Shown here piece after piece: positions 1,330 to 51,186 of a stretch of 64,000 nucleotides of DNA (positions are counted from its first letter, which is position 1; the number at the start of each line of letters is the position of its first letter). The translations under genes and the position numbers were made by a program. The notes beneath the pieces are model-generated. The model saw only the letters and a list, made by a program, of their open reading frames with translations. It was not told where the DNA came from and ran no database searches. The stretch is from an uncultured Pseudomonadota bacterium (GTDB taxonomy: Bacteria > Pseudomonadota > Gammaproteobacteria > Steroidobacterales > Steroidobacteraceae), in NCBI GenBank assembly GCA_903927005.1, contig CAIYLH010000004.1, forward strand, positions 19,177 to 83,176. The letters run 5' to 3'.

Positions 1330-1438
1330 CCTGCGAGTGTACCCGCCCATCGACAGACGGGGCAGGGGCGCCCGGCTCGCTCCCTTGCTAGACTGTGGGC
1401 TCGGGCCTGTAGCTCAACGGTTAGAGCAGGGGACTCAT

Positions 1439-1716
1439 CGATCCGACCGGGTCGGAATGGTGCCTTCGTGCGGTAACGCACGAAGTGGACGGGATGAATT
1501 CAGGGAACCCTTACCGACCGCCGCAAGGCGTTCGCTGGCAACCCTGAGCCAAGCCGGCGGTACACCGCCGGAAGGTGCAGAGACTACCTGGGGGCTGGGC
1601 GTTTGCCCGAGAGCCCTTAATGACAGGCAAGAGCGTCCCGCACCCGACCGTCGCGCCCCGTGGGCGGCGAGGGTGAAGAGATAGTCCACTCCCACGGGAA
1701 ATCGTGGGGCAGAGTG
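1439..1716 (+). ncRNA. Group I self-splicing intron (Azoarcus tRNA-Ile / IC3-like), no ORF
   Basis: Begins right after anticodon U (5' exon ends CAU), which can pair with GUG at 1460-1462 as P1 with a U-G wobble. Ends in G1716 (omega-G). It carries, in Azoarcus order: a P2-like hairpin 1464-1485 CUUCGUGCG-GUAA-CGCACGAAG; UUCAGGG (1499-1505) pairing with CCCUGAG (1542-1548); CGCC-GCAA-GGCG (1519-1530); GAGCCAAGC (1546-1554); CCGGCGG-UACA-CCGCCGG (1554-1571); and GAAGGUGCAGAGACUAC (1571-1587, P7/G-binding region). Confidence 0.8.
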
Positions 1717-1742
1717 AATCCCTTGGTTCTGGGTTCGAATCC

Positions 1743-1756
1743 CAGCGGGCCCACCA
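1743..1756 (+). repeat. attL core: 14-bp direct repeat CAGCGGGCCCACCA (3' end of the tRNA)
   Basis: Identical 14-mer recurs at 7045-7058. The two copies bracket an integrase-led gene set. Confidence 0.8.
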
Positions 1757-1880
1757 AACAACCATTTCGCGACGCGTTGTAACGCCCCTCCCTTCGGGGG
1801 CAACGCGACTAATCTACTGTAAAACAAGCGAATCATGTCGTCGCTACGCACCGGCACGCTCCATTGCATCCCATAACGCG

Positions 1881-1902
1881 TGGGGGTACCTTTGGGGGTA
1901 AC
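1881..1902 (+). repeat. 22-bp repeat TGGGGGTACCTTTGGGGGTAAC (two tandem GGGGGTA half-sites), left-arm copy; candidate integrase arm-type site
   Basis: Exact 22/22 copy at 6961-6982. Located 125 bp inside attL. Confidence 0.6.
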
Positions 1903-1930
1903 ACACGGAACGGGGCCGCGCTGACGCGCA

Positions 1931-1940
1931 GTTACCCCCA
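1931..1940 (-). repeat. Inverted copy of the half-site (GTTACCCCCA = reverse complement of TGGGGGTAAC)
   Basis: Read directly. Lies between the 22-bp repeat and the integrase start codon. Confidence 0.5.
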
Positions 1941-1963
1941 ACCGAGTAACCGAGGGGTTCGCT

Positions 1964-3217
1964 GTGAGCAAGAACGCGCTAAACAAACTCACGACCGTCG
2001 CGGTGGATGCCGCCAAAGGCCGCGCCAAGCCCTACAAGCTTGCCGACGGCGGGGGCCTGTACCTGTTGGTCAACGAGGACGGGCGCCGCTACTGGCGCAT
2101 CAAGTACCGCGTAGATGGCAAGGAGAAGCTTCTCTCTCTCGGAGTCTTTCCCGAGGTGACGTTGAAGCGCGCCCGGACTCTTGCCGGCGAAGTCCGCAAG
2201 CTCAAGGCGACGGGAGCCGATCCCGCGCAGGAGCGCCAGTACGCTAAAGCGAAGCGCCGCGCTGACGCCGCCAATACGGTGGAGGCAATTGCCCGTGAGT
2301 GGGTGGCGAAGGAAGCGAAGCGCTGCGACTGGGCCGACTCTCACGGCCGCGTTGTGCTGCGCCGACTGGAGAAGGACGTATTCGGGCGGCTCGGGTCGAA
2401 GCCGATAGGCAGCGTGACGCACGCCGACTTGCTGGCCGCGCTCAAGCGGGTAGAGGAACGCGGGGCGATGGAGAGCGCCCACCGCGTGCGCCAGTATCTC
2501 GACGCGACGTTTCGTTACGCGATGGCGAAGCACTTGGTGCCCGCCAACCCGACGCCGAACCCCCAAGAGCTTGAGGTGCCTGACCGTGGCCGGTTCGCCG
2601 CGATAACCGATCCCAAAGGCGTGGGCGCTCTACTGCGGGCGATTGGCGGGTACTCGGGCTCGCACGTTGTCCGTACTGCGCTGAGGCTCGCGCCGTTGGT
2701 GTTCGTGCGGCCGGGCGAGCTGCGGGCTGCCGAATGGGCTGAGTTCGATCTCGACGCCGCTGAGTGGATGATTCCCGCCGAGCGCATGAAGATGCGCCGC
2801 CCGCACCTTGTGCCGCTCAGCGCTCAAGCTGTCGCGCTACTGCGGGAGCTTCACGACCTAACCGGCACGGGCAAGCTTGTGTTCCCGAGTGAGCGCGGAC
2901 GCGGGCGGCCGATGAGTGAGAACACGCTGAAGGCAGCGCTAGACACGCTCGGCTTCGCCGGCAAGCACACGGCGCACGGCTTCCGGCATATGGCTTCGAC
3001 GATGCTCCATGAATCGCGGAAGTTCCGCAGCGAGGTTGTCGAGCGCCAGCTCGCCCACGCCGACAAGAACACGATTCGCGCCGTCTATAACGCCGCCGAG
3101 TATCTGGAGGAGCGGCGCCAGATGCTGCAATGGTGGAGCGACCGACTGGAGACGCTCGCCGCGACCGATAACGTCGTGAGTCTGGGCAAGCGCCGGCCGG
3201 GTACGCGCAATGCCTAA
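1964..3217 (+). CDS. Tyrosine-type site-specific integrase, P4-like (DUF4102 N-terminal arm-binding domain)
   Basis: 417 aa with GTG start. N-terminus KPYKLADGGGLYLLVNEDGRRYWRIKYRVDGKEKLLSLGVFPEVTLKRAR is typical of P4-family integrases. C-terminal catalytic region has HGFRHMASTMLHE ... LAHADKNTIRAVYNAAEY. Confidence 0.9.
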   Translation: MSKNALNKLTTVAVDAAKGRAKPYKLADGGGLYLLVNEDGRRYWRIKYRVDGKEKLLSLGVFPEVTLKRARTLAGEVRKLKATGADPAQERQYAKAKRRADAANTVEAIAREWVAKEAKRCDWADSHGRVVLRRLEKDVFGRLGSKPIGSVTHADLLAALKRVEERGAMESAHRVRQYLDATFRYAMAKHLVPANPTPNPQELEVPDRGRFAAITDPKGVGALLRAIGGYSGSHVVRTALRLAPLVFVRPGELRAAEWAEFDLDAAEWMIPAERMKMRRPHLVPLSAQAVALLRELHDLTGTGKLVFPSERGRGRPMSENTLKAALDTLGFAGKHTAHGFRHMASTMLHESRKFRSEVVERQLAHADKNTIRAVYNAAEYLEERRQMLQWWSDRLETLAATDNVVSLGKRRPGTRNA

Positions 3218-3773
3218 ACCATACAAGCGCACCGCACCATCGAAAGTCTGCGTCCGCACGTTCGTTTTCAAACCCGATTCCTGGGCCGCGCTCGCTAAAT
3301 TGCTTGGCGGGCAAAGCCCGCAATGCTTGCATGCACGAAAGGGTACCGAGCGAATCCTGACACTCGCAGTAGCCCGAGAGGTCACCGAGACAAAACGCGC
3401 TCGGCCGGAGAAAAAGGGGGCTCCCGAACGCGAGGCGATACAGCTCGCTGTAAAGGAACTAATTAAGATCTTTCGTGGCTACTACCGGCCCCCCGACGCC
3501 CCGAAGCCGCGCCCCACTCCATACGCGTTGCGCCGTCTGGAAACAGCGTTTGTAAGGCGCTGTCTACTGCAAGCCAAGCTGATAGCGTCAACTGACGGCA
3601 AGGATCGCGCCCCAAGCTTGCGATGGTACTTGGAGGATTCCCGGCTATCGGGCAGCCGCGCTGAGGCGCTGGACAAGATCGCGGGGCGAGCCGATAAAGC
3701 CCTAGAAAGGATTGGTTTACCGGAGTGGCCCTCCGACGAGAACGGGGGGCCGTCCGAAAAGGAACCCGAATAG
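3210..3773 (+). CDS. Hypothetical protein (island-encoded)
   Basis: 187-aa ORF. Its ATG overlaps the integrase stop by 8 nt. No recognisable motif. Confidence 0.5.
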   Translation: MPKPYKRTAPSKVCVRTFVFKPDSWAALAKLLGGQSPQCLHARKGTERILTLAVAREVTETKRARPEKKGAPEREAIQLAVKELIKIFRGYYRPPDAPKPRPTPYALRRLETAFVRRCLLQAKLIASTDGKDRAPSLRWYLEDSRLSGSRAEALDKIAGRADKALERIGLPEWPSDENGGPSEKEPE

Positions 3774-3870
3774 GCCCGCATATCGGCGGTGTACCTTTTC
3801 CTACGCGTCTCCCGACGCACGTTCCGTAAAGCTTCGCCCACAGCCGCGCTTTGCGGTTCTGGGAGAAGCC

Positions 3871-4065
3871 ATGACAACCCGATTGATTCGACTCGCTGAG
3901 ATGCTCGCCCGCACGGGCCTGAGTCGCAGCACCCTCTATCGACTAGAAGCGGATGGAAAGTTTCCACGCCGCGTGAAGCTCGGCGCCCGCTCGGTCGCAT
4001 GGCATGAAGCGGGGTTACTCCAATGGATGGAGAGCCGCGCCGCTGCCGCGAACACCCCCAACTAG
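3871..4065 (+). CDS. alpA: AlpA-family transcriptional regulator / excisionase (prophage CP4-57-type HTH)
   Basis: Internal ATG of ORF 3712-4065 preceded by GGGAGAAGCC. Sequence is MTTRLIRLAEMLARTGLSRSTLYRLEADGKFPRRVKLGARSVAWHEAGLLQWMESR, the characteristic AlpA HTH pattern. Confidence 0.85.
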   Translation: MTTRLIRLAEMLARTGLSRSTLYRLEADGKFPRRVKLGARSVAWHEAGLLQWMESRAAAANTPN

Positions 4066-4114
4066 AAAAAGCCGCCGGTCCTGAAAGGGATACGGCGGCA
4101 TAGAGGTATTGCGT

Positions 4115-4294
4115 ATGTATTCTACAAATTCTGCACCACGATTCCCCATGATTGACACTCCTTCGTGCGGGAGTTGCGGGCTGCCGTTGCCGGATGAGAA
4201 GCAACGGCTGTGTCGGAGGTGTCATGGCTACGGAATGCTGAGAGCCGTGCTTAAGGAAGCGCTGCGCGACATTCGCGACGAGCGTCCGGAGTGA
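4115..4294 (+). CDS. Small zinc-ribbon protein (CxxC...CxxC), hypothetical
   Basis: ATG at 4115 with GAGG 8 nt upstream (the track uses TTG at 4109). Contains CGSCGLPLPDEKQRLCRRCHGYG. Its stop overlaps the next start (GTGA). Confidence 0.5.
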   Translation: MYSTNSAPRFPMIDTPSCGSCGLPLPDEKQRLCRRCHGYGMLRAVLKEALRDIRDERPE

Positions 4295-5457
4295 ACGCCG
4301 CCAACCCGCTGCTTAACCCCGGTCTCGGACTGTCGCTGTTGCGCGGCGATGAGGTGACACCCGAGCCGGTGCGCTGGCTCTGGAAGGGATGGCTCGCCAA
4401 GGGGAAGCTCCATGTTCTGGCAGGAGCCCCAGGAACTGGGAAAACTACGCTCGCCGTCAATCTTGCTGCCGTAATAACCAAAGGCGGCACATGGCCCGAC
4501 GGAACGCGAAGCCCCGTCGGAGACGTTCTTATTTGGAGTGCTGAGGATGACGTTCGAGATACGCTAATTCCGCGATTCCACGCTGCGGGCGCCGACGTAT
4601 CCCGGGTATGGTTTATTCGGCACGTTGATGTCGATAATGGCGTGCGCGACTTCGATCCCGCTTCCGATCTCTTGCTGTTAGAGGAGCGGTTGCGGGTAAT
4701 GGATAGCCCCGCGCTCTTGATAGTCGATCCCATCGTGAACGCAATTGCTGGCGACTCTCACAAGAACGGCGAGGTACGCCGTGCGCTGGCCCCGATGGTG
4801 GCGCTCGCGGAACGGCACAGCGTCGCGGTATTGGGCATTACCCACTTCAGCAAGGGAACCGCCGGCAGGGAGCCAACCGAGCGCGTAACCGGATCGGTTG
4901 CTTTCGGCGCCCTCGCCCGAATCGTAATGGTCACTGCAAAGGGTGAGCTGACAGAGGATGGCGAGGAGTCCGACAGGTTGTTCATGCGCTCGAAGTCGAA
5001 TATCGGGCATGACGACGGCGGGTATAAGTACGCGTTGGAGCAAGTCCCACTTGTCAACTATGTAGACATTGCTGCGAGCGTCGTGCGCTGGCGCGGCGTC
5101 ATGGAAGGCTCGGCAAGGGACGCGCTTGCGGCCGCTGAAGTCAGAGGCGACGAGGAGGGAGGAGGCGCGTTGCGTGAGGCGGTCGAGTTTCTTCGCGACT
5201 CTCTCGCGCATGGCTCGGTGCCGGTCAACGACCTACAGACTGCTGCACGCGCCGCCGGTCATTCGCCCAGTACCCTCCGGCGGGCGAAAGAGCGGCTCGG
5301 CGTGCGACCGTCGAAATGCGGCCGGGCGGGTGGGTGGGTATGGGCTCTCCCTGAAGATGCTCAATTGAATGGCAAGATGCCCACTCAAAATGGCATGGAC
5401 ACCTTCAGAAAGCATGGGCACCTTCGGGGCGCCGATGAGTCCGAGGCGCTGGAATGA
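4291..5457 (+). CDS. RecA-fold AAA ATPase (AAA_25 / RepA-like replicative helicase family) with C-terminal HTH-like tail
   Basis: 388 aa. Walker A is LAGAPGTGKTTLAV and Walker B is ALLIVDPI. VRWLWKGWLAKGKLHVLAG is typical of island/plasmid RepA-like ATPases. No primase (TOPRIM/zinc) domain is visible. Confidence 0.8.
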   Translation: MNAANPLLNPGLGLSLLRGDEVTPEPVRWLWKGWLAKGKLHVLAGAPGTGKTTLAVNLAAVITKGGTWPDGTRSPVGDVLIWSAEDDVRDTLIPRFHAAGADVSRVWFIRHVDVDNGVRDFDPASDLLLLEERLRVMDSPALLIVDPIVNAIAGDSHKNGEVRRALAPMVALAERHSVAVLGITHFSKGTAGREPTERVTGSVAFGALARIVMVTAKGELTEDGEESDRLFMRSKSNIGHDDGGYKYALEQVPLVNYVDIAASVVRWRGVMEGSARDALAAAEVRGDEEGGGALREAVEFLRDSLAHGSVPVNDLQTAARAAGHSPSTLRRAKERLGVRPSKCGRAGGWVWALPEDAQLNGKMPTQNGMDTFRKHGHLRGADESEALE

Positions 5458-5840
5458 GCGCCGACGACGCCCTAGCCGCGCTTGCTGCCGACGGCGCGGA
5501 GCTGCTGTTGCGGGGCGGGCGGTTGCACGCCAAGCCGCCCGGGCGCGTCAGTGAGGCGACGGCCGTGCTCATTCGCTCCCATGCCGAGGAGCTGCGGAGC
5601 CGGCTGGCCCATCCCCTCGACCTCACCGACGGCTGTGCTGCCATGTTGGCGTTGGGGCGGTGGGTAATCTGCGAGTCCTGCAACCGATTCAATGCGAGGC
5701 CCGCCCATAGGCCAGACGGCTTGTGCACGGCGCATGGTGAAACGTGGGCCCGCGCCCCTCTCCATTGCGAAACCTTCCTATCGGCTGCGCCTGATCTGAA
5801 CAGCCGAGGATCACAACGCCCGGAGGGATATGCAGCATGA
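5454..5840 (+). CDS. Hypothetical protein, N-terminal TubC_N-like segment, Cys/His-rich C-terminus
   Basis: 128 aa. ATGA overlap with the upstream gene. Contains ALAALAADGAELLLRGGRLHAKPPGRVSEATAVLIRSHAEELRSRL, then CESCNRF...CTAHG...HCE. Confidence 0.6.
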   Translation: MSADDALAALAADGAELLLRGGRLHAKPPGRVSEATAVLIRSHAEELRSRLAHPLDLTDGCAAMLALGRWVICESCNRFNARPAHRPDGLCTAHGETWARAPLHCETFLSAAPDLNSRGSQRPEGYAA

Positions 5841-6232
5841 AGTACCAGAAAGGCAGGAGCGGCAATCCACGCGGACGCCCGGCGGGGATTCAAGACAAAC
5901 GCACCGAATTGCGACGATTGTTAGAGCCACACGCGGAGGAGCTTGTGCGCAAGGCGGTAGAGCTTGCGAAGGCTGGCGACGGCGCGGCGATGCGGCTTTG
6001 CCTCGACCGGCTCATTCCGACGCTCAAGGCTCGCGACGAGCCCGCGACGGGCTTTAGCGGGGGCCCTGACGATGGGGCCAACCTAGGCCGCGCTGTCCTG
6101 CGGGCGATGGCGGCGGGTGACGTTACCCCGGACCAAGCGTCCGTGATGATGGCCGCGATATCGGCTCACTCGCGGATAGTGGAGGTGGACGAGCTGGAGC
6201 GCCGCGTTGCGGCATTAGAGAAGCCCGAGTGA
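5837..6232 (+). CDS. DUF5681-like protein (N-terminal GNPxGRPxG motif common in phage/satellite proteins)
   Basis: 131 aa beginning MKYQKGRSGNPRGRPAGIQDKRTELRRLLE. ATGA overlap with the upstream gene. Confidence 0.65.
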   Translation: MKYQKGRSGNPRGRPAGIQDKRTELRRLLEPHAEELVRKAVELAKAGDGAAMRLCLDRLIPTLKARDEPATGFSGGPDDGANLGRAVLRAMAAGDVTPDQASVMMAAISAHSRIVEVDELERRVAALEKPE

Positions 6233-6636
6233 ATAAGCAACTGGAGCGGCGAGTTGTCTCGCTGGAAGCTGCTCGCGGCGCTCGGGCGCCTAGCGGCCTG
6301 ACCGAGGTCGAGCTGATCGAGCTGCTACAGGACCGATTCGCCGCCTATGAACGCCGCGAGCTGGATCTGGCGAGGATGAGCCCTACAAGCCGCGCTGAGG
6401 CACTACGGACGGAGTTGGCAGCGCGTCGCGCCAAGTGGGCAGAGGATCTCGCCCGACCCAACACGGGCCGCCTGAGCGCCCATACGCCCGCGCTCGAAAG
6501 GCGGATGCAGCAAGAGCTGGAGCTTCGGATTCTGAAGGCAGAGGGTGAGCCGCTAGCGAGTTTGGAATTGCAGAGACGGAAGATGGATGAACTATTTAGC
6601 GGCGGCGGTTCTCGGGCACGTACTTGTGCACGCTGA
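6229..6636 (+). CDS. Hypothetical coiled-coil protein
   Basis: 135 aa. GTGA overlap with the upstream gene. Rich in R/E/L heptad-like sequence. Its 3' end overlaps the convergent lipoprotein gene by 45 nt. Confidence 0.5.
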   Translation: MNKQLERRVVSLEAARGARAPSGLTEVELIELLQDRFAAYERRELDLARMSPTSRAEALRTELAARRAKWAEDLARPNTGRLSAHTPALERRMQQELELRILKAEGEPLASLELQRRKMDELFSGGGSRARTCAR

Positions 6637-6846
6637 ATAACCGTCATGGCAGGCCGCAAGTTGGTTGTTCTGCACTATGCCGCCCGTCACGCATGACGAG
6701 TAAGCCGTTGTACATTGGCGAACGCACGCCGGCTCTTTGTCGCGTACATCAATCTCCGTGATGCTGCGCGGAGCTGCGGTGCATCCAGCAAGCGATGCTG
6801 CGACGGCGAAAATGGCGAGATGTCTCGCTGAGCAAAAGTAGGTCAT
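6592..6846 (-). CDS. Small Cys-rich lipoprotein (island cargo)
   Basis: 84 aa. Lipobox in MTYFCSARHLAIFAVAASLAGC. The mature part has 6 further Cys (CVRQC, SSC, AC, SAC, STC). Confidence 0.55.
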   Translation of the reverse strand: MTYFCSARHLAIFAVAASLAGCTAAPRSITEIDVRDKEPACVRQCTTAYSSCVTGGIVQNNQLAACHDGYSACTSTCPRTAAAK

Positions 6847-6960
6847 GTAGCCCCCTATCCCGTGGCACGCCCGATGACTGCACCGTAGCCCTGTGCCACG
6901 CTACCCGCCATTGGGCAATCGCATACGGCCGCATCTTGTCGCGAACCAGTTGTCCATCTC

Positions 6961-6982
6961 TGGGGGTACCTTTGGGGGTAAC
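6961..6982 (+). repeat. 22-bp repeat TGGGGGTACCTTTGGGGGTAAC, right-arm copy
   Basis: Exact copy of 1881-1902. Located 63 bp inside attR. Confidence 0.6.
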
Positions 6983-7044
6983 TCCAGGAATGTCATAGCA
7001 TTAACGGGTTCAAAACCAATAGGTTAAGCGCTCGTTGCGGTGGA

Positions 7045-7058
7045 CAGCGGGCCCACCA
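7045..7058 (+). repeat. attR core: CAGCGGGCCCACCA (displaced tRNA 3'-end copy)
   Basis: 14/14 identity to 1743-1756. The flanks diverge on both sides. Confidence 0.8.
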
Positions 7059-33198: not shown

Positions 33199-35073
<1,875 letters not shown>

Positions 35074-35198
35074 GATAGGTACCCCTAATGCGGGCTTAAA
35101 AGAGCCGTGCATTGTACACGGACAGGCCCCGAGCCCCAAGGCGGAGCCCTAAATCAAGGGCATTGTCAAGAATCATGCCGACGGGCGCCGACCGGATT

Positions 35199-37016
35199 TC
35201 AGCCCGCGGGGTCGGGCAGGGGGCGCGTCCGCGCCTGCAATTCACGCAGTTCGCGCTTTTCGTCGTCGCCGAGGCCTTCACCGGCGGCCTTGTCGATCAG
35301 TTCGTCGATCCGTCGCTCCGGCCCCGCCTCGGCCACCAGCTTGGCCACGGCCGCAGCGAGCTCCCGGGCGACCGCCCCGTCCTCAAGCTCCGGCAGCGGA
35401 ACCGCGGCGAGTTCCGCCAAGCGCGCATGCTCCGGGCGGTCCCGCCAACGTTCGACCAGCTGGGCCGAGTTCAGGGTGGGCTCGGCGTGCATGGTTTCAA
35501 TCAGTTCAGCCAGTACCGCCAGCCCACGGTCGCCGGACAGGCGCAGCGCCTCCGGTTCGCCAACCGTGGCGGCAGCGGCCGGGTGTTGCAGCAGCCGGGC
35601 GATCGCCTGGCTGGCGAGTGAGCCGCGGCCGGTGGGTCGGCGCAGCGGCTGCGCCTGTCGCTGGCTGCCTGGCATGGCGCTCGCTGAGGAGCCTGGGCCC
35701 GGTGTGCCGAGGCCCAGCAGCGCCGATAGCCGCCCGGCGGGCATGCGCACCTCGCGCGCCAGCCGGTCGATCAGCAGCTCCCGGTAGATGCCCTCCGGTA
35801 CGCGGGAAATCAGTGGCCGAGCCAGTTCCGCCAAGCGCGCACGGCCGTCTACAGAGGTCAGGTCCGTTTCTGCGGCGAAGTGGCTGACGAGGTATTCCGA
35901 TAACGGCATCGCGCCTGCGACGCGCGCCTCAAACGCTTCCTTGCCCTCGGCGGCGACCAGAGTGTCTGGGTCGTGGCCTTCTGGCAGGAACAGGAACTTG
36001 ATCTGGCGTCCCTCCTTGGCGAACGGCAGGCAGGTTTCTAGGGCGCGCCAGGCGGCCTGCCGGCCGGCCTTGTCACCGTCAAACGAGAACACGACGTCGC
36101 CGGTGACGCGGAACAGCCGGTTCAGGTGCTCGGGGGTCGTCGCCGTGCCGAGGGTCGCCACCGCGTAGTGGATGCCGGCCTGCGCGAGGCGCACCACGTC
36201 CATGTAGCCCTCGACGACCAGTAGTCGCTCGATCTTGCGCATTTCCTGGCGCGTTTCGTACAGCCCGTACAGCTCGCGGCCCTTGTGGAACAGCGGCGTT
36301 TCGGGGGAGTTCAGGTACTTCGGTTCGCCCTGGTCGAGGATCCGGCCGCCGAAACCGACCACGCGCCCGCGGGAATCGCGGATCGGGAACATGATCCGGT
36401 CGCGGAAGCGGTCATAGAAGCCTGGGCCCGCGCCGCGCTGCTGCTCCGGCGCGCGCTCGATGATCAGCCCGGCGGCCAGCAGGGCCTGCTGGCCGGCCTC
36501 GGTTGCGCCGAATTTCTTCAGTACGGCATCCCAGCCGGCCGGTGCGTAGCCAAGGTGGTAGCGGGCCGCGGTCTCGCCGACCAGTCCGCGCCCTTTCAGA
36601 TAGTCCTTGCCGCGGTCTGAGTCCTTCAGCGCGTCGCGGAAGTGCTGGTCGGCTGCCGCCATGAGCGCGAACAGGTCGTCCAGCAGCCGGTCGCGTGGAT
36701 CGGGTCCGGCGCCGCCTTCGCGCGGTACCTCAAGGCCCGCCCGGCCGGCCAGGTCCTCGACCGCGTCCGGGAACGGCAGGCGGTCGTGCTCCATCAGGAA
36801 GGTCAGGGCCGTGCCGTGCACGCCGCAGCCGAAGCAGTGATAGAACTGCTTGGTTTGCGAGACCGTAAAAGAGGGGCTTTTCTCGTTGTGGAACGGGCAG
36901 TTAGCCTTCCACTCGCGACCCGCCTTCTTGAGCGGGACGCGGCTGCCGATCACCTCGATGATATCGGTGCGGGCGAGCAGGTCGTCAATGAAAGCGCGAG
37001 GGATCCGGCCGGCCAT
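35199..37016 (-). CDS. dnaG: DNA primase
   Basis: 605 aa. Zinc finger CPFHNEKSPSFTVSQTKQFYHCFGCGVHG. TOPRIM region LLVVEGYMDVV...FSFDGDKAGRQAAWRA. Confidence 0.95.
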   Translation of the reverse strand: MAGRIPRAFIDDLLARTDIIEVIGSRVPLKKAGREWKANCPFHNEKSPSFTVSQTKQFYHCFGCGVHGTALTFLMEHDRLPFPDAVEDLAGRAGLEVPREGGAGPDPRDRLLDDLFALMAAADQHFRDALKDSDRGKDYLKGRGLVGETAARYHLGYAPAGWDAVLKKFGATEAGQQALLAAGLIIERAPEQQRGAGPGFYDRFRDRIMFPIRDSRGRVVGFGGRILDQGEPKYLNSPETPLFHKGRELYGLYETRQEMRKIERLLVVEGYMDVVRLAQAGIHYAVATLGTATTPEHLNRLFRVTGDVVFSFDGDKAGRQAAWRALETCLPFAKEGRQIKFLFLPEGHDPDTLVAAEGKEAFEARVAGAMPLSEYLVSHFAAETDLTSVDGRARLAELARPLISRVPEGIYRELLIDRLAREVRMPAGRLSALLGLGTPGPGSSASAMPGSQRQAQPLRRPTGRGSLASQAIARLLQHPAAAATVGEPEALRLSGDRGLAVLAELIETMHAEPTLNSAQLVERWRDRPEHARLAELAAVPLPELEDGAVARELAAAVAKLVAEAGPERRIDELIDKAAGEGLGDDEKRELRELQARTRPLPDPAG

Positions 37017-47765: not shown

Positions 47766-47781
47766 CCACAAGATGTTGTGG
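47766..47781. promoter_or_regulatory. NrdR-box candidate 2: CCACAAGATGTTGTGG
   Basis: 16-bp palindrome with the CACAAnATnTTGTG core. Overlaps the predicted transcription start region. Confidence 0.6.
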
Positions 47782-47916
47782 CAAGCGAAAACAGGGAAGG
47801 ATGCGGTCGAAGGTAGGGAGAGCGGGGCAAGCCATCAGGCTTGTCAGGGATTAGCTGCCGTTTCCGAAACAACGATTAAAACAACGAATTCAGGCTCAAC
47901 GGAGCACTACGTCAAG

Positions 47917-50900
47917 ATGAGCATGGCCTACAAGTTAGAGCCCCGGGATGGATCCATTCCATTCCAGGAAGCGTCGATCGATATCTGGGACAAGAAGTAC
48001 CGCCTGACTGCGAAGGATGGCTCTGCCATCGACCAGTCGATGGACGATACCTACCGACGAGTCGCAGTGGCGCTGGCCGATGTCGAGCCGGCGGAATTGC
48101 GCGAGCATTGGTTTGAGCGGTTCTTCTGGGCTTTGCGCAAGGGCGCGATCCCGGCGGGCCGCATCACCTCGAACGCCGGTGCGCTCGAGCACAAGCCGGC
48201 TACCTCGACGATCAACTGCACCGTGTCGGGGACGATCCTCGACTCGATGGACGACATTCTCAACAAGGTCCACGAAGCGGGGCTGACGCTGAAGGCCGGC
48301 TGTGGCATCGGTTACGAGTTCTCGACGTTGCGTCCGCGCGGCGCGTACGTCTCTGGTGCCGGTGCCTATACGTCGGGCCCGATGTCGTTCATGGATATCT
48401 ACGACAAGATGTGTTTCACCGTGTCCTCTGCCGGCGGCCGTCGCGGCGCGCAGATGGGTACCTTCGACATCGGTCATCCGGACGCGCTGGAGTTCATTCG
48501 CGCCAAGCGTGAGAACGGCCGACTGCGCCAGTTCAACCTGTCGCTGCTGATCACCGACGAGTTCATGGACGCGGTGAAGTCCGACGGCAACTGGAAGCTC
48601 GCTTTCCCGCTGTCGAAGAAGGAGTACGAGGCGGAGCAGCCGGACCTCGCCGACGAGGCCAAGTACGTCTGGCGCGAATGGCCGGTCACGACCAACTACG
48701 TCACCCGGGACGACGGCCTGGTCTGCTGCAAGATCTACAAGATCCTGCCGGCTCGCCGCGTCTGGGACCTGATCATGTCGTCGACCTACGATTTCGCGGA
48801 GCCCGGCTTCGTGCTGATCGACCGCGTCAATGAGATGAACAACAACTGGTGGTGCGAAAATATCCGCGCTACCAATCCCTGTGTGCCTACAGACACCTGG
48901 GTGCAAACCGCGGTCGGTCCGCGCCAGGTTGCCGATCTTGTTGGTACGCCGTTCCTTGCCCGCATCGATGGGCATGACCACGCGACCGGCGGCGAGGGCT
49001 TCTTCAAGACTGCAGACAAGGCGCTCGTGCGGATCGAGACGGACGAGGGCTATTCACTGCGCTTGACGAGCGATCACCGCGTTCGTCGGGTGACACACCA
49101 GACGCGCTGGTCGATGGCAACCGAATGGTGCGCAGCGGATGCGCTTGCAGTGGGCGACCGCGTCCTGCTCAACGACCATCGGAGTGGGGCATCGTGGGCG
49201 GGCGCCCACACGTTCGACGAGGGCTACCTGCTGGGTCTGCTGATCGGCGACGGCACATTCGCCGACGGGCGCGCGGTATTGTCGGCGTGGCCAATGGCCG
49301 AGGTTGTCAACGGCGAACCGGCGAGCGGTGGGGTTGGCGCGGTTATGACGGCCGCGCTTGCAGCGGCTCGCCCACTCGCGAGCCGTGCCGACTTTAGCGG
49401 CTGGCACGCGACTGCCGGGAGAGGCGAGTACCGCTTGCGTCTTGCCGGCCTGACGCGTCTCGCCGCTGGGTTCGGTATCGCGGCCGGAACTAAGACAATC
49501 ACGCCGGCCGTTGAGCGCACTTCAAGCGAGTTCCATCGCGGCTTGCTGCGAGGCCTTTTCGATGCGGACGGCTCGGTGCAGGGCTCGCAGGCCAAGGGCG
49601 TCTCGGTACGCCTTGCACAGTCCGATCATGCGCTTCTCGAGGCGGCTCAGCGCATGCTGCTGCGTCTGGGTATCGCCTCCCGGATCTACGCAAACCGTCG
49701 CGACGCCGGCATGTCGTCGCTTCCGGATGGTCATGGCGGCACACGCGAGTATCCGACACGCGCACAGCACGAACTAGTGATCGGCGGCGACAACCTCGCG
49801 CTATTCCATGACCGGGTCGGCTTCACCGATATCGCAAAGTCCGGCAGCCTTGCGGCCGCGCTCGCCGGCTACCGTCGCACACTCAACCGGGAGCGCTTCA
49901 CTGCGACCGTGGCGGCGGTCGCCGCGGACGGCTTCGAGGCGGTATACGACGTACAGGTGCCGGGCATCAACACGTTCGACGCCAATGGCCTGCACGCGCA
50001 TAACTGCGGTGAGCAGCCGCTGCCGCCGTACGGCTCGTGTTTGCTCGGCTCTGTGAACCTGACGCGCTTCGTCGTAAGTCCCTTCACGCCGGACGCGAAG
50101 TTCGACTGGGACGAGTATCGCGAGGTGACCAAGATCTTCACCCGCATGCTCGACAACGTCGTCGAGATCAACGGTCTGCCGCTGCCCGGACAGCGCGATG
50201 AGATCATGCGTAAGCGCCGCCACGGCATGGGGTTCCTGGGCCTGGGCTCGGCGATCACCATGCTGGGCATGCGGTACGGCTCGATCGAGTCGGTGCAGTT
50301 TACCGAGGCGGTATCGCGCGAGATGGCGATCGCTGGTTGGGAAGCGGGTCTGGACCTCGCCCGCGAGAAGGGGCCTGCCCCAATCATGAACGAGGAGTTC
50401 GTGATCACCGCGAAGATGCTCCGGCAGCGGCCGGAGATGGTGAAGGACGGCTGGAAGCTCGGTCAGAAGGTTCCCGGCCGCATCCTGCACGCGCGCTACA
50501 GCCGCTACATGCAGCGCATCGCGGCGGTGCAGCCGGCGCTGGTTGAGCAGCTGGCGACGACGGGCGCGAGATTCACGCATCACAGCTCGATTGCGCCGAC
50601 CGGCACGATCTCGTTGTCGCTCGCCAACAACGCTTCGAACGGCATCGAGCCGTCGTTCGCGCACCACTACATGCGCAACGTGATCCGCCCGGGCCGCAAG
50701 ACGAAGGAGCAGATCGACGTTTACTCGTTTGAGTTGCTGGCCTATCGCGAGCTGATCAACCAGAAGGCGATGCCTGGCGCAACCAAGCCGGACGAAGCGC
50801 TGCCCGAGTACTTCGTGACTGCGGATGCGATCACGCCAGAGCAGCACGTTGACGTGCAGGCGGCGGCGCAGAAGTGGATCGACTCAAGCATCTCCAAGAC

Positions 50901-51186
50901 AGCCAATGTCCCGACCGACTTTAAGTATGAGTCGTTCAAGAACATCTACCTGTATGCGTATGAGCAGGGCCTGAAGGGCTGTACGACGTTCCGTTTCAAC
51001 CCCGAAGCGTTCAGTGGCGTGCTGGTCAAGGAGGAAGATCTTAAGAACACGACCTATGTGTTTACCCTTGACGACGGCACTGAGGTCAAGGTCCGAGGCG
51101 ACGAGACCATCGAATACGATGGCGAGACGCACGGCGCCGCGAACCTGTTCGACGCGCTCAAGGAAGGGTACTACGGGAAGTTCTGA
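47917..51186 (+). CDS. nrdJ: Class II (adenosylcobalamin-dependent) ribonucleotide reductase, large fragment NrdJa, containing an intein
   Basis: ATG at 47917 (MSMAYKLEP...) within the track ORF 47773-51186. Extein motifs include TINCTVSG, GCGIGYEFSTLRPRG and IRATNP / CGEQPLPPYGSCLLGS. The spliced product is predicted at 714 aa (321 + 393). Confidence 0.9.
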   Translation: MSMAYKLEPRDGSIPFQEASIDIWDKKYRLTAKDGSAIDQSMDDTYRRVAVALADVEPAELREHWFERFFWALRKGAIPAGRITSNAGALEHKPATSTINCTVSGTILDSMDDILNKVHEAGLTLKAGCGIGYEFSTLRPRGAYVSGAGAYTSGPMSFMDIYDKMCFTVSSAGGRRGAQMGTFDIGHPDALEFIRAKRENGRLRQFNLSLLITDEFMDAVKSDGNWKLAFPLSKKEYEAEQPDLADEAKYVWREWPVTTNYVTRDDGLVCCKIYKILPARRVWDLIMSSTYDFAEPGFVLIDRVNEMNNNWWCENIRATNPCVPTDTWVQTAVGPRQVADLVGTPFLARIDGHDHATGGEGFFKTADKALVRIETDEGYSLRLTSDHRVRRVTHQTRWSMATEWCAADALAVGDRVLLNDHRSGASWAGAHTFDEGYLLGLLIGDGTFADGRAVLSAWPMAEVVNGEPASGGVGAVMTAALAAARPLASRADFSGWHATAGRGEYRLRLAGLTRLAAGFGIAAGTKTITPAVERTSSEFHRGLLRGLFDADGSVQGSQAKGVSVRLAQSDHALLEAAQRMLLRLGIASRIYANRRDAGMSSLPDGHGGTREYPTRAQHELVIGGDNLALFHDRVGFTDIAKSGSLAAALAGYRRTLNRERFTATVAAVAADGFEAVYDVQVPGINTFDANGLHAHNCGEQPLPPYGSCLLGSVNLTRFVVSPFTPDAKFDWDEYREVTKIFTRMLDNVVEINGLPLPGQRDEIMRKRRHGMGFLGLGSAITMLGMRYGSIESVQFTEAVSREMAIAGWEAGLDLAREKGPAPIMNEEFVITAKMLRQRPEMVKDGWKLGQKVPGRILHARYSRYMQRIAAVQPALVEQLATTGARFTHHSSIAPTGTISLSLANNASNGIEPSFAHHYMRNVIRPGRKTKEQIDVYSFELLAYRELINQKAMPGATKPDEALPEYFVTADAITPEQHVDVQAAAQKWIDSSISKTANVPTDFKYESFKNIYLYAYEQGLKGCTTFRFNPEAFSGVLVKEEDLKNTTYVFTLDDGTEVKVRGDETIEYDGETHGAANLFDALKEGYYGKF
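48880..50004 (+). mobile_element. Intein (375 aa) with LAGLIDADG homing-endonuclease domain, inserted in the NrdJ active-site motif
   Basis: Interrupts ATNP|CGEQPL. Begins CVPTDTWV (block A, Cys1). Has LRLTSDHRV (block B, TxxH), LLGLLIGDGTF and LLRGLFDADGSV (two LAGLIDADG motifs) and VYDVQVPGINTFDANG (block F). Ends LHAHN, followed by the +1 Cys. Confidence 0.9.

Follow-up and report, generated by a model that had tools for sequence, protein, structure and literature searches.

A 278-nt group I intron of a hairpin-bearing subfamily probably excises itself from a tRNA-Ile2(CAU) gene in an uncultured gammaproteobacterium

Four settings in which group I introns interrupt tRNA genes of bacteria are regarded as classical, and Ile2.5Ug is one of them in a survey of 5,292 intron-split tRNA genes, which also reports that all four are marked IC3 in a group I intron database (Williams, bioRxiv 10.1101/2020.01.27.920355). 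Introns of the Ile2.5Ug class reside in tRNA-Ile2, interrupt the anticodon loop as CUCAU/AA, are preceded by U at position -1, end in G (omega) and carry no ORF. The 205-nt intron of Azoarcus sp. BH72 (A. olearius), Aol6.Ile2.5Ug, self-splices in vitro (PMC13168695). In Acidovorax and Burkholderia a group I intron hides tRNA-Ile2 from tRNAscan-SE, so that the genome seems to be without this tRNA (PMC8450103). The IC3 intron of cyanobacterial tRNA-Leu(UAA), Leu.3Ug, is likewise compact, ORF-less and located in the anticodon loop.

The locus described here was found in a 64-kb stretch of DNA, called the window below. It has every one of the Ile2.5Ug features listed above and no class-defining difference from that class. 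The published seed alignment includes a single Ile2.5Ug sequence, which is of the compact Azoarcus type; the window intron falls in a longer subfamily. We put at roughly 90% the probability that the locus is a chromosomal gene for tRNA-Ile2(CAU) in an uncultured gammaproteobacterium near Steroidobacteraceae, that an ORF-less group I intron of the larger Ile2 subfamily, the one having the hairpin between P7 and P3′, splits it between positions 36 and 37, and that it would be spliced as proposed below.

Coordinates are those of the window, on the plus strand unless stated otherwise. Exon 1 (1403-1438, 36 nt) supplies the 5′ strand of the acceptor stem, the D arm, the 5′ strand of the anticodon stem and the loop sequence CUCAU, which ends in the anticodon CAU; it hardly varies in the alignment of 15 homologues. 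The intron (1439-1716) has 278 nt, and G is its last base. Exon 2 (1717-1756, 40 nt) continues with the loop nucleotides AA, the 3′ strand of the anticodon stem, the variable loop UGGUU, the T arm, the 3′ strand of the acceptor stem, the discriminator A and an encoded CCA. The insertion site thus separates anticodon-loop nucleotides 5 and 6, directly after U36. Joining the exons yields a 76-mer with a canonical cloverleaf of 7, 4, 5 and 5 bp stems, two G-U pairs included. An initial annotation, made from the sequence alone, had proposed exons of 36 and 40 nt, 278 nt apart, that rebuild a 76-nt tRNA(CAU), and both coordinates and sequence are as it gave them; ARAGORN, which it had suggested running on the spliced 76-mer, returned a canonical tRNA with anticodon CAU. 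The default ARAGORN search of the whole 64-kb window reported zero tRNAs. This bears out the expectation that standard tRNA finders overlook the gene, in agreement with the tRNAscan-SE 2.0 paper (PMC8450103).

The Rfam model RF00028 (Intron_gpI) matches positions 1426-1708 on the plus strand with 58.3 bits (E 3.2e-12, model positions 1-253), above its gathering score of 50 bits, and this is the sole Rfam match within the window. The search had also been proposed in the initial annotation, whose central claim, a tRNA-Ile(CAU) gene in which a group I intron directly follows the anticodon U, agrees with RF00028, ARAGORN, the P1 wobble and the omega-G alike. The intron folds with an MFE z-score of -3.79, and none of 200 shuffled sequences folds equally well. 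The ORFs that overlap it are mechanical and have no significant Pfam match; there is therefore no sign of a homing endonuclease, and the description of the intron as ORF-less stands.

A fold was proposed for the intron and compared across 15 homologues. Its 87 pairs are formed in 97.5% of the cells (pair by homologue), as opposed to 37-48% when the partners are slid, and compensatory changes occur at 30 pairs; none of 500 shuffles attains the observed values. Every proposed pair forms in the window copy. U-1, the P1 wobble, both strands of P7 and the omega-G are invariant in the 15 sequences. The core helices P1, P3, P4 and P7, together with the extra hairpin's helix a, show no covariation in these sequences, which makes them compatible with the fold and uninformative by themselves. 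Judged from this alignment, the intron family is under purifying selection with compensatory changes.

P1 (1436-1439/1459-1462) pairs exon CAU and the first intron C with the internal guide GGUG and places the wobble U1438-G1460 at the 5′ splice site; its four pairs (CAUC/GGUG) are invariant in the 15 sequences, and the local fold has -11.8 kcal/mol. It is prolonged by a hairpin (1440-1458) that is specific to the window, comparable extensions being present only at loci L036 and L098. P2 (1464-1485) is a locally folding 9-bp helix with a GUAA tetraloop of the GNRA type, and all nine of its pairs show compensatory changes. The 5′ strand of P3, CGGGAUG (1490-1496), pairs at 7 of 7 positions with the 3′ strand CGUCCCG (1634-1640). 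P3 is formed in 100% of the cells, with a single one-sided change from U-G to C-G. The bulged P3 of the Rfam alignment was dropped, as the direct 7-bp pairing fits better. The P4-P5-P6 domain (1500-1576) is also paired in 100% of the cells and comprises, with local folds in support, P4 (1500-1505/1542-1547, invariant), P5 (1509-1510/1537-1538, with a distal hairpin closed by a GCAA loop), P6 (1548-1550/1574-1576) and P6a (1554-1560/1565-1571, compensatory changes at 4 pairs). The G-binding helix P7 is made by the 5′ strand G-A-GACUA (1580-1586), with a bulged A, and the 3′ strand UAGUCC (1682-1687); P7 and P3 together make up a pseudoknot. P8 (1641-1675) has a conserved basal part of 5 bp (98.7% of cells paired, compensatory changes at 2 pairs) and a variable distal part that is longer in the window. 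P9 (1690-1709) is a local 8-bp helix with a GAAA tetraloop and compensatory changes at 7 of the 8 pairs. The intron ends in the omega-G at the 3′ splice site (1716). By inspection, P10 with the 3′ exon appears weak: with GGAAU, 4 pairs out of a possible 5 form. The motifs listed in the initial annotation are all present, namely the GUG guide (1460-1462), P2 with its GUAA loop, GAGCCAAGC (1546-1554) and GAAGGUGCAGAGACUA (1571-1586).

Between P7 and the 3′ strand of P3, at the P7.1 position, lies an extra hairpin (1587-1627; local fold -19.0 kcal/mol), which is found in 15 of 15 introns of the window's subfamily, here called subfamily B. It is composed of helix a (CCUG/CAGG, 1587-1590/1624-1627), invariant in sequence, a 6-nt bulge UAAUGA (1618-1623), helix b (1591-1595/1613-1617), two of whose five pairs show compensatory changes and another one a one-sided change, and an apical GGGC-GUUU-GCCC (1597-1608) specific to the window. 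The Rfam model reads this region as a 45-nt insertion. In the 15-homologue alignment, no correlation between the type of L2 tetraloop and the sequence of the bulge was apparent by eye.

The Azoarcus and window introns occupy the same splice site of the same tRNA, and both have the CAU/GUG P1 and GNRA loops on P2 and P9. In the Williams seed alignment, the Azoarcus P7 strands GAGACUA and AUAGUCC are identical to those of the window (context ...GUAGAGACUA in Azoarcus, ...GCAGAGACUA in the window), and the core motifs of P4-P6 (GAGCCAAGC, GAAGGUG-AGAGACUA) are very similar. Where Azoarcus passes from GAGACUA through a 2-nt GA linker to its P3′ strand CGGCACC, the window has the 41-nt hairpin and a 6-nt linker (47 nt, 1587-1633), and its P3 differs (CGGGAUG/CGUCCCG). 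Azoarcus-type loci L006, L092, L109 and L119 likewise have nothing but the GA linker at this place. The 11-nt tetraloop receptors CCUAAG...UAUGG, present in P5 and P8 of Azoarcus (Aol6) and in the compact loci, are absent from P5 and P8 of the window. The intron had been estimated to exceed the Azoarcus one by about 70 nt, and the measured excess is 73 nt (278 versus 205). It had been ascribed to an expanded P8/P9 periphery; in fact 45 of the 73 nt belong to the hairpin and linker between P7 and P3′, 13 nt to the P1 extension, 12 nt to P8 and only 1 nt to P9.

A hairpin at the same position occurs in four seed introns from other tRNAs, Mga42.Leu.1Ug, Dba165.Lys.2Ug, Pam37.Asn.4Ug and Mba55.Phe.2Ug, and in Mga42.Leu.1Ug the motif ccug...uaauaa...cagg corresponds to that of the window. 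With the gammaproteobacterial subfamily these seeds share the P3′ strand AGCG(U/C)CC and the J8/7 sequence AUGAGAUAGUCC, which in the window itself reads AAGAGAUAGUCC. The distance tree groups them with the window, but they differ from it in host tRNA and loop position and have 51-59% core identity. Cyanobacterial Leu.3Ug is nearly identical to the window in P4-P6 and J6/7, but it occupies another host and site, lacks the hairpin between P7 and P3′ and shows 58% core identity. The P4-P6 core of the window closely resembles the IC3 seeds, whereas the hairpin at the P7.1 position is absent from the compact IC3 introns compared. The Acidovorax and Burkholderia cases are betaproteobacterial, and the betaproteobacterial loci L033, L041 and L045 differ from the window in having another insert and a long P6.

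A scan of species-representative genomes for the intron core gave at least 121 matches in 120 stretches. At least 23 of the matches listed have a tRNA-Ile2 host, and at least 15 of these 23 belong to the window's subfamily, mostly in gammaproteobacteria. Subfamily B comprises Ile2 introns of 232-316 nt with the conserved extra hairpin, and Lysobacter daejeonensis and Luteimonas aestuarii are cultured carriers of the window-type intron. The core identity of the window intron to the gammaproteobacterial subfamily is 67-83%, compared with 55% to the Azoarcus intron. In a neighbour-joining tree of 198 core columns, a rough distance method, the window lies beside the introns that have the hairpin and pairs with a Steroidobacteraceae locus (L096); Azoarcus lies beside the compact Ile2 introns of betaproteobacteria and the classical introns of tRNA-Arg, tRNA-fMet and tRNA-Leu. 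As core identity is only 55% and the two introns fall on different branches, the label 'Azoarcus-like' is not supported in the sense of lineage. Nor is the gene uncommon, as had been supposed: the Ile2.5Ug setting is classical, with at least 23 Ile2 hosts among the 121 core matches listed, and the intron-split Ile2 gene is a known class that is common in the window's bacterial group. A comparison of the first 12 kb of the window with 22 genome loci for synteny returned only spurious tblastx matches inside the intron; either the surroundings of the locus lack conservation, or the 8-kb length of the loci does not suffice to reveal it.

We tentatively consider, as a scenario with rather less than even odds, that the mostly gammaproteobacterial window-type Ile2 introns are a separate lineage that colonised the CAU/AA site independently or displaced an Azoarcus-type intron. 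In this scenario the hairpin between P7 and P3′, with its invariant CCUG/CAGG, URAUNA bulge and covarying helix, might be a new tertiary-contact module replacing in function the 11-nt receptors that Azoarcus carries in P5 and P8 and that are missing from subfamily B.

A putative extended -10 element, TGcTAGACT (1386-1394), ends 8 nt before the 5′ end of the tRNA and may act as its promoter. Nearly all of 13 subfamily-B loci have a TAnnnT hexamer, often with TGn before it, at a distance of 7-9 nt upstream of the tRNA. A strict two-hexamer sigma-70 scan and a terminator scan found nothing at the locus. The rpsU-dnaG-rpoD context named in the initial annotation is correct in that RpoD (33199-35139, minus strand) and DnaG (35199-37016, minus strand) are encoded in the window, but they are 32 kb away from the tRNA. 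In a homology search with RpoD, the nearest homologue bearing a family label, and the sole one with such a label, came from a Steroidobacteraceae metagenome-assembled genome (82%), in line with the lineage suggested above. The immediate neighbours are a truncated minus-strand ORF upstream, identified as RmuC by the gene call on an identical metagenome contig, and a phage-type integrase. The latter is a P4-type tyrosine integrase (1964-3217; Pfam Arm-DNA-bind_3, Phage_int_M and Phage_integrase). Its attL (1743-1756) consists of the final 14 nt of the tRNA, CAGCGGGCCCACCA, which are repeated exactly as attR (7045-7058). This repeat was spotted by eye and then confirmed by exact count: two exact copies bracket the integrase module, and two copies arise in none of 100 shuffles. 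No further copy of the tRNA 3′ end came up when 25 nt were searched with up to 3 mismatches allowed, the real repeat being only 14 nt long. A 5.3-kb integrative element is thus seated at the 3′ end of the tRNA, and the arrangement recurs on three metagenome contigs. The integrase-island genes are rich in AUA codons. AUA codons also occur in chromosomal genes of the window, including one in rpoD.

Other readings of the locus concern the identity of the tRNA and the splice register. The name that ARAGORN gives to the spliced product is tRNA-Met(cat), since its isotype call considers only the anticodon. An elongator tRNA-Met(CAU) is nevertheless very improbable as the product. With E. coli tRNA-Ile(CAU) the spliced tRNA shares 81-83% identity, compared with 69% for the elongators metT and metU and 59% for initiator tRNA-Met. 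Its acceptor stem contains G1-C72, G3-C70, C4-G69 and C5-G68, while elongator tRNA-Met has U-A and A-U at the last two positions. The published identity pairs for TilS, 4:69 and 5:68 in E. coli and 3:70 and 4:69 in B. cenocepacia (PMC11947777), are present in this stem. Moreover, the pipeline of Williams, which uses the isotype models of tRNAscan-SE, calls this class of host and site Ile2. On its identity to the E. coli tRNAs and the TilS pairs, the host tRNA is tRNA-Ile2, neither Met nor fMet. In its intron mode ARAGORN reports tRNA-Gln(ctg) i(35,278), a register 2 nt upstream that would give tRNA-Gln(CUG) with G1714 as a possible terminal G. We give this register next to no credence: it puts C instead of U at -1 and loses the invariant U-G wobble of P1, the body of the tRNA is that of an Ile2, and with homologous introns that end in CG the anticodon on the same body would become CCG or CGA. 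The CAU/...G/AA register is the sole one that gives an identical anticodon, CAU, in every homologue.

The gene could also be a decaying or silent copy, with an intron that no longer splices and AUA read by an uninterrupted tRNA-Ile2 or a tRNA-Ile(UAU) elsewhere. The visible DNA extends over only 64 kb and contains no other tRNA, the strict scan gave no promoter, and metagenomes hold at least 120 uninterrupted Ile2 genes with the intron-less junction, up to 74 of 76 nt identical. Yet none of the uninterrupted genes listed shares the flanks of the window. All core pairs are intact, as are the nucleotides at the two splice sites, the family appears to be under selection for its fold, the gene is identical on three independent metagenome assemblies, and the -10-like element is conserved. 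There is also a precedent in which an apparently missing tRNA-Ile2 turned out to be split by an intron (PMC8450103). We therefore regard a silent copy as unlikely, if somewhat less so than a tRNA-Met product, and favour an active, intron-split tRNA-Ile2 gene.

For such an active gene the following course is proposed. Transcription would be driven by a promoter of its own just upstream. The intron would adopt the standard group I core, with the P3/P7 pseudoknot, the P4-P6 domain, P8 and P9, while exon CAU and the internal guide GUG form P1 with the U-G wobble at the splice site. A free guanosine bound in P7 would attack after U1438. G1716 would then take its place in the P7 pocket, and the 3′-OH of exon 1 would attack after G1716, releasing the 76-nt tRNA. 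The 278-nt RNA would thus probably cut itself out of the tRNA. TilS is predicted to convert C34 to lysidine only after splicing, whereupon the tRNA would be charged with Ile and read AUA.

The present gene leaves knowledge of this kind of element unchanged. As a natural variant of the small group I ribozyme that is best studied, with the same exon context and a different periphery, the subfamily could serve comparative folding studies. For annotation, the intron-split gene is invisible to default ARAGORN and tRNAscan-SE; when it is missed, this metagenome-assembled genome and many genomes of Lysobacterales and Steroidobacterales would seem to be without the essential AUA decoder. If the copy is the sole one, all AUA decoding, from the AUA codon of rpoD to the AUA-rich genes of the island, would hinge on self-splicing before modification by TilS.

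Spliced in silico, exon 1 (1403-1438 (+), 36 nt) and exon 2 (1717-1756 (+), 40 nt) give GGGCCUGUAGCUCAACGGUUAGAGCAGGGGACUCAUAAUCCCUUGGUUCUGGGUUCGAAUCCCAGCGGGCCCACCA, which ARAGORN folded into a canonical cloverleaf of 76 nt that has a CAU anticodon and encodes its CCA end. The sequence at 1403-1756 reads as in the initial annotation, which had rebuilt the same CAU cloverleaf from two exons. Its suggestion that standard tRNA scans may miss the gene was borne out: default ARAGORN made no tRNA call across the 64 kb. The spliced tRNA is 81-83% identical to E. coli tRNA-Ile(CAU) (K-12 ileX and the best RefSeq hit), 69% to elongator Met (metT, metU) and 59% to initiator Met (metZ), all as annotated in RefSeq. 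Pair 1:72 is G1-C72, instead of the C1-A72 mismatch of the initiator. The acceptor stem, with G3-C70, C4-G69 and C5-G68, carries the pairs by which TilS separates tRNA-Ile2 from tRNA-Met both in E. coli (4:69, 5:68) and in B. cenocepacia (3:70, 4:69) (PMC11947777). By sequence, the host is identified as tRNA-Ile2. Genes without an interruption that match this tRNA at as many as 74/76 positions are abundant in metagenomes. When upstream regions were compared, nearly all relatives proved to have a -10-like hexamer 7-9 nt before the tRNA, often with TGn ahead of it; the window's version reads TGcTAGACT (1386-1394). Since a strict two-hexamer scan of the locus for a sigma-70-type promoter found nothing, this element is a putative promoter.

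With introns allowed, ARAGORN shifted the 278-nt intron 2 nt upstream and called tRNA-Gln(CUG). In that register C stands at -1, the P1 U-G wobble is lost, and the anticodon becomes CCG or CGA, on an unchanged tRNA body, in homologues with a CG instead of a UG intron end. Placing the intron between CAU and AA, with a terminal G, gives a CAU anticodon in all homologues, and U-1, the P1 pairs and omega-G are all invariant in the alignment of the 15 closest genes. On all these counts the upstream register is wrong.

The intron matched RF00028 (Intron_gpI) at 1426-1708 (+) over the full model (58.3 bits, gathering score 50, E 3.2e-12), the sole Rfam family above threshold within the window, which confirms the proposed group I assignment. 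ORFs overlapping the intron had no significant Pfam match; it therefore has no homing endonuclease, in keeping with the earlier statement that it holds no ORF. Its minimum free energy fold is better than 200/200 dinucleotide shuffles (z = -3.79), and unconstrained folding recovers P2, P4, P5, P6, P8, P9 and an extra hairpin. A hand-built structure of 87 pairs (the four tRNA arms, P1-P9 and the extra hairpin) was tested on the 15-gene alignment. Standard pairs filled 97.5% of cells, compared to 37-48% when partners were slid by 1-3 columns, and compensatory changes occurred at 30 pairs compared to a shuffle mean of 17.0; 0/500 shuffles matched the observed values. Covariation falls in P2, P6a, P8, P9 and helix b of the extra hairpin; P1, P3, P4, P7 and helix a do not vary, and so fit the fold but are uninformative alone. 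Every one of the 87 pairs is formed in the window copy, and the gene is identical on three independent metagenome contigs. These comparisons indicate that the intron/tRNA fold is under selection. Self-splicing has been demonstrated experimentally for the Azoarcus member only (PMC13168695); introns of the window's subfamily are predicted to do the same.

Counted manually, element by element, against the 205-nt intron of Azoarcus olearius BH72 in Williams' seed alignment, the window intron is 73 nt longer, close to the roughly 70 nt first estimated. The excess had been placed 3' of about 1590 and read as a P8/P9 expansion. The position was right, but the assignment was not: 45 nt lie between the P7 5' strand and the P3 3' strand, an interval holding a 41-nt hairpin (1587-1627) and a 6-nt linker, and the Rfam alignment likewise shows a 45-nt insertion after GAGACUA. 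The remainder comes from the P1 extension hairpin (+13 nt), P8 (+12), P4/P5 (+4), J2/3-P3 (+2) and the P9 tail (+1), with P2 and P6 each 2 nt shorter. All 15 subfamily members carry the hairpin, built of an invariant CCUG/CAGG helix, a 6-nt URAUNA bulge and a covarying 5-bp helix; a variable apical extension is found in the window and in five scanned loci (L028, L036, L037, L084, L098). Optional helices between P7 and P3' are already part of Williams' consensus structure (bioRxiv 10.1101/2020.01.27.920355), and the seed Mga42.Leu.1Ug shares a ccug...uaauaa...cagg motif with this hairpin. Inserts here are common in bacterial tRNA introns, since in 57/121 listed core matches (L004-L123) GAGACUA is directly followed by something other than GAYGG. 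Among these 121, CCUG-starting inserts occur in Ile2 hosts in 15/15 cases.

The core matches come from searching GTDB genomes, one for each species, for the pattern GAGCCAAGC-N8-38-GAAGGUGYAGAGACUA, which hit at least 120 stretches. Most of the matches listed fall within split tRNA genes, which span many isotypes, and at least 23 are in tRNA(CAU) genes interrupted at the CAU-AA site seen in the window. On 198 well-aligned core columns the window intron is 67-83% identical to its own subfamily and 55% to Azoarcus. A neighbour-joining tree, a rough distance method, groups it with hairpin-bearing seeds, and Azoarcus with compact betaproteobacterial Ile2 introns (L006, L092, L109, L119) and the classical Arg, fMet and Leu introns. 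This tree is consistent with qualitative differences: the window has another P3 sequence and the insert between P7 and P3', and lacks the CCUAAG...UAUGG receptors that Azoarcus carries in P5 and P8. The initial reading was correct in its core, that a group I intron interrupts a tRNA-Ile2 gene at the Azoarcus site; on the evidence of identity, tree and architecture, its placement in an Azoarcus-type lineage was not. A third, mostly betaproteobacterial type with a different insert and a long P6 (L033, L041, L045, L101) occupies the same position, so that by sequence at least three intron types share one site of one tRNA.

The intron of L101 (1105-1447) is in a Runella-labelled MAG (Bacteroidota), which could reflect horizontal transfer or mis-binning. 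Three archaeal-labelled MAGs also match the bacterial-type core pattern (L014, L043 and L064; two Pacearchaeota, one Methanosarcinaceae), L014 and L043 in apparently split tRNA-Asn genes; Williams suspected mis-binning in a similar Pacearchaeota case (bioRxiv 10.1101/2020.01.27.920355). A Proteobacteria MAG (L017) has core matches on opposite strands about 470 nt apart (5632-5666 (+), 6134-6167 (-)), the first alone resolved by ARAGORN, as tRNA-Leu(UAA).

Among cultured bacteria, the subfamily occurs in Lysobacter daejeonensis GH1-9 and Luteimonas aestuarii B9. Further members are in MAGs labelled Rhodanobacteraceae, Woeseiaceae, Pseudomonadales and Candidatus Azotimanducaceae, several labelled Gammaproteobacteria only, one Proteobacteria only and one K189A clade. 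The window HtpG is identical to MCX7056214.1, from a MAG labelled 'Proteobacteria bacterium'. Among RpoD homologues with a family label, the nearest belongs to a Steroidobacteraceae MAG (82%; hits above it have at most a phylum label), in agreement with the intron tree, in which the window pairs with a Steroidobacteraceae locus (L096). The rpsU-dnaG-rpoD context first proposed holds only in that RpoD and DnaG are encoded in the window, 32 kb from the tRNA. In E. coli K-12, ileX lies just 3' of rpoD with mug in between, an order that may be the source of the claim. The window's second putative self-splicing element is an intein that interrupts NrdJ, a B12-dependent ribonucleotide reductase (47773-51186 (+), 1137 aa), at about aa 399-744 and has a LAGLIDADG_3 endonuclease domain.

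A 5.3-kb integrative element (1743-7058) occupies the 3' end of the tRNA gene, bounded by identical 14-mers, CAGCGGGCCCACCA, at attL (1743-1756) and attR (7045-7058). Between them lie a P4-type integrase (1964-3217), a 187-aa ORF, a small AlpA-like ORF, an AAA_25/RepA-like protein (4291-5457) and a DUF5681 protein (5837-6232). A 30-nt direct repeat, 90% identical (TGGGGGTACCTTTGGGGGTAAC..., 1881-1910 and 6961-6990), lies close to each att site on the island side; the repeats probably serve as arm-type sites of the integrase, whose domains include one that binds arm DNA. Homologues of the integrase adjoin uninterrupted tRNA-Ile2 genes at four metagenome loci (L149, L138, L198, L188), so the family seems to target tRNA-Ile2 with or without an intron.

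Across 11 chromosomal ORFs of the window AUA is used at 1.13 per 1,000 codons (2.8% of Ile codons), once in rpoD, so that reading it requires a lysidine-modified tRNA-Ile2 or something equivalent. In the island ORFs (1964-5457) it reaches about 6 per 1,000 codons, 24% of Ile codons; the element is thus lodged in the very gene whose tRNA decodes the rare codon that it over-uses. An intron-split gene as the sole detectable Ile2 copy has precedent in 36 genomes apparently without fMet or Ile2 tRNA genes owing to group I introns, which tRNAscan-SE 2.0 'was not designed to detect' (PMC8450103).

Contrary to what had been supposed, the setting is not rare. Williams' survey of about 81,000 genomes found 5,292 group I-split tRNA genes and recognized four classical settings, Leu.3Ug, Arg.5Ug, fMet.2Ug and Ile2.5Ug, all subgroup IC3 in the group I intron database cited there (bioRxiv 10.1101/2020.01.27.920355). 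The window gene is Ile2.5Ug and adds to a known, well-populated class; its interest is modest, and lies in the distinct architecture of its subfamily and in the annotation blind spot into which such genes fall.
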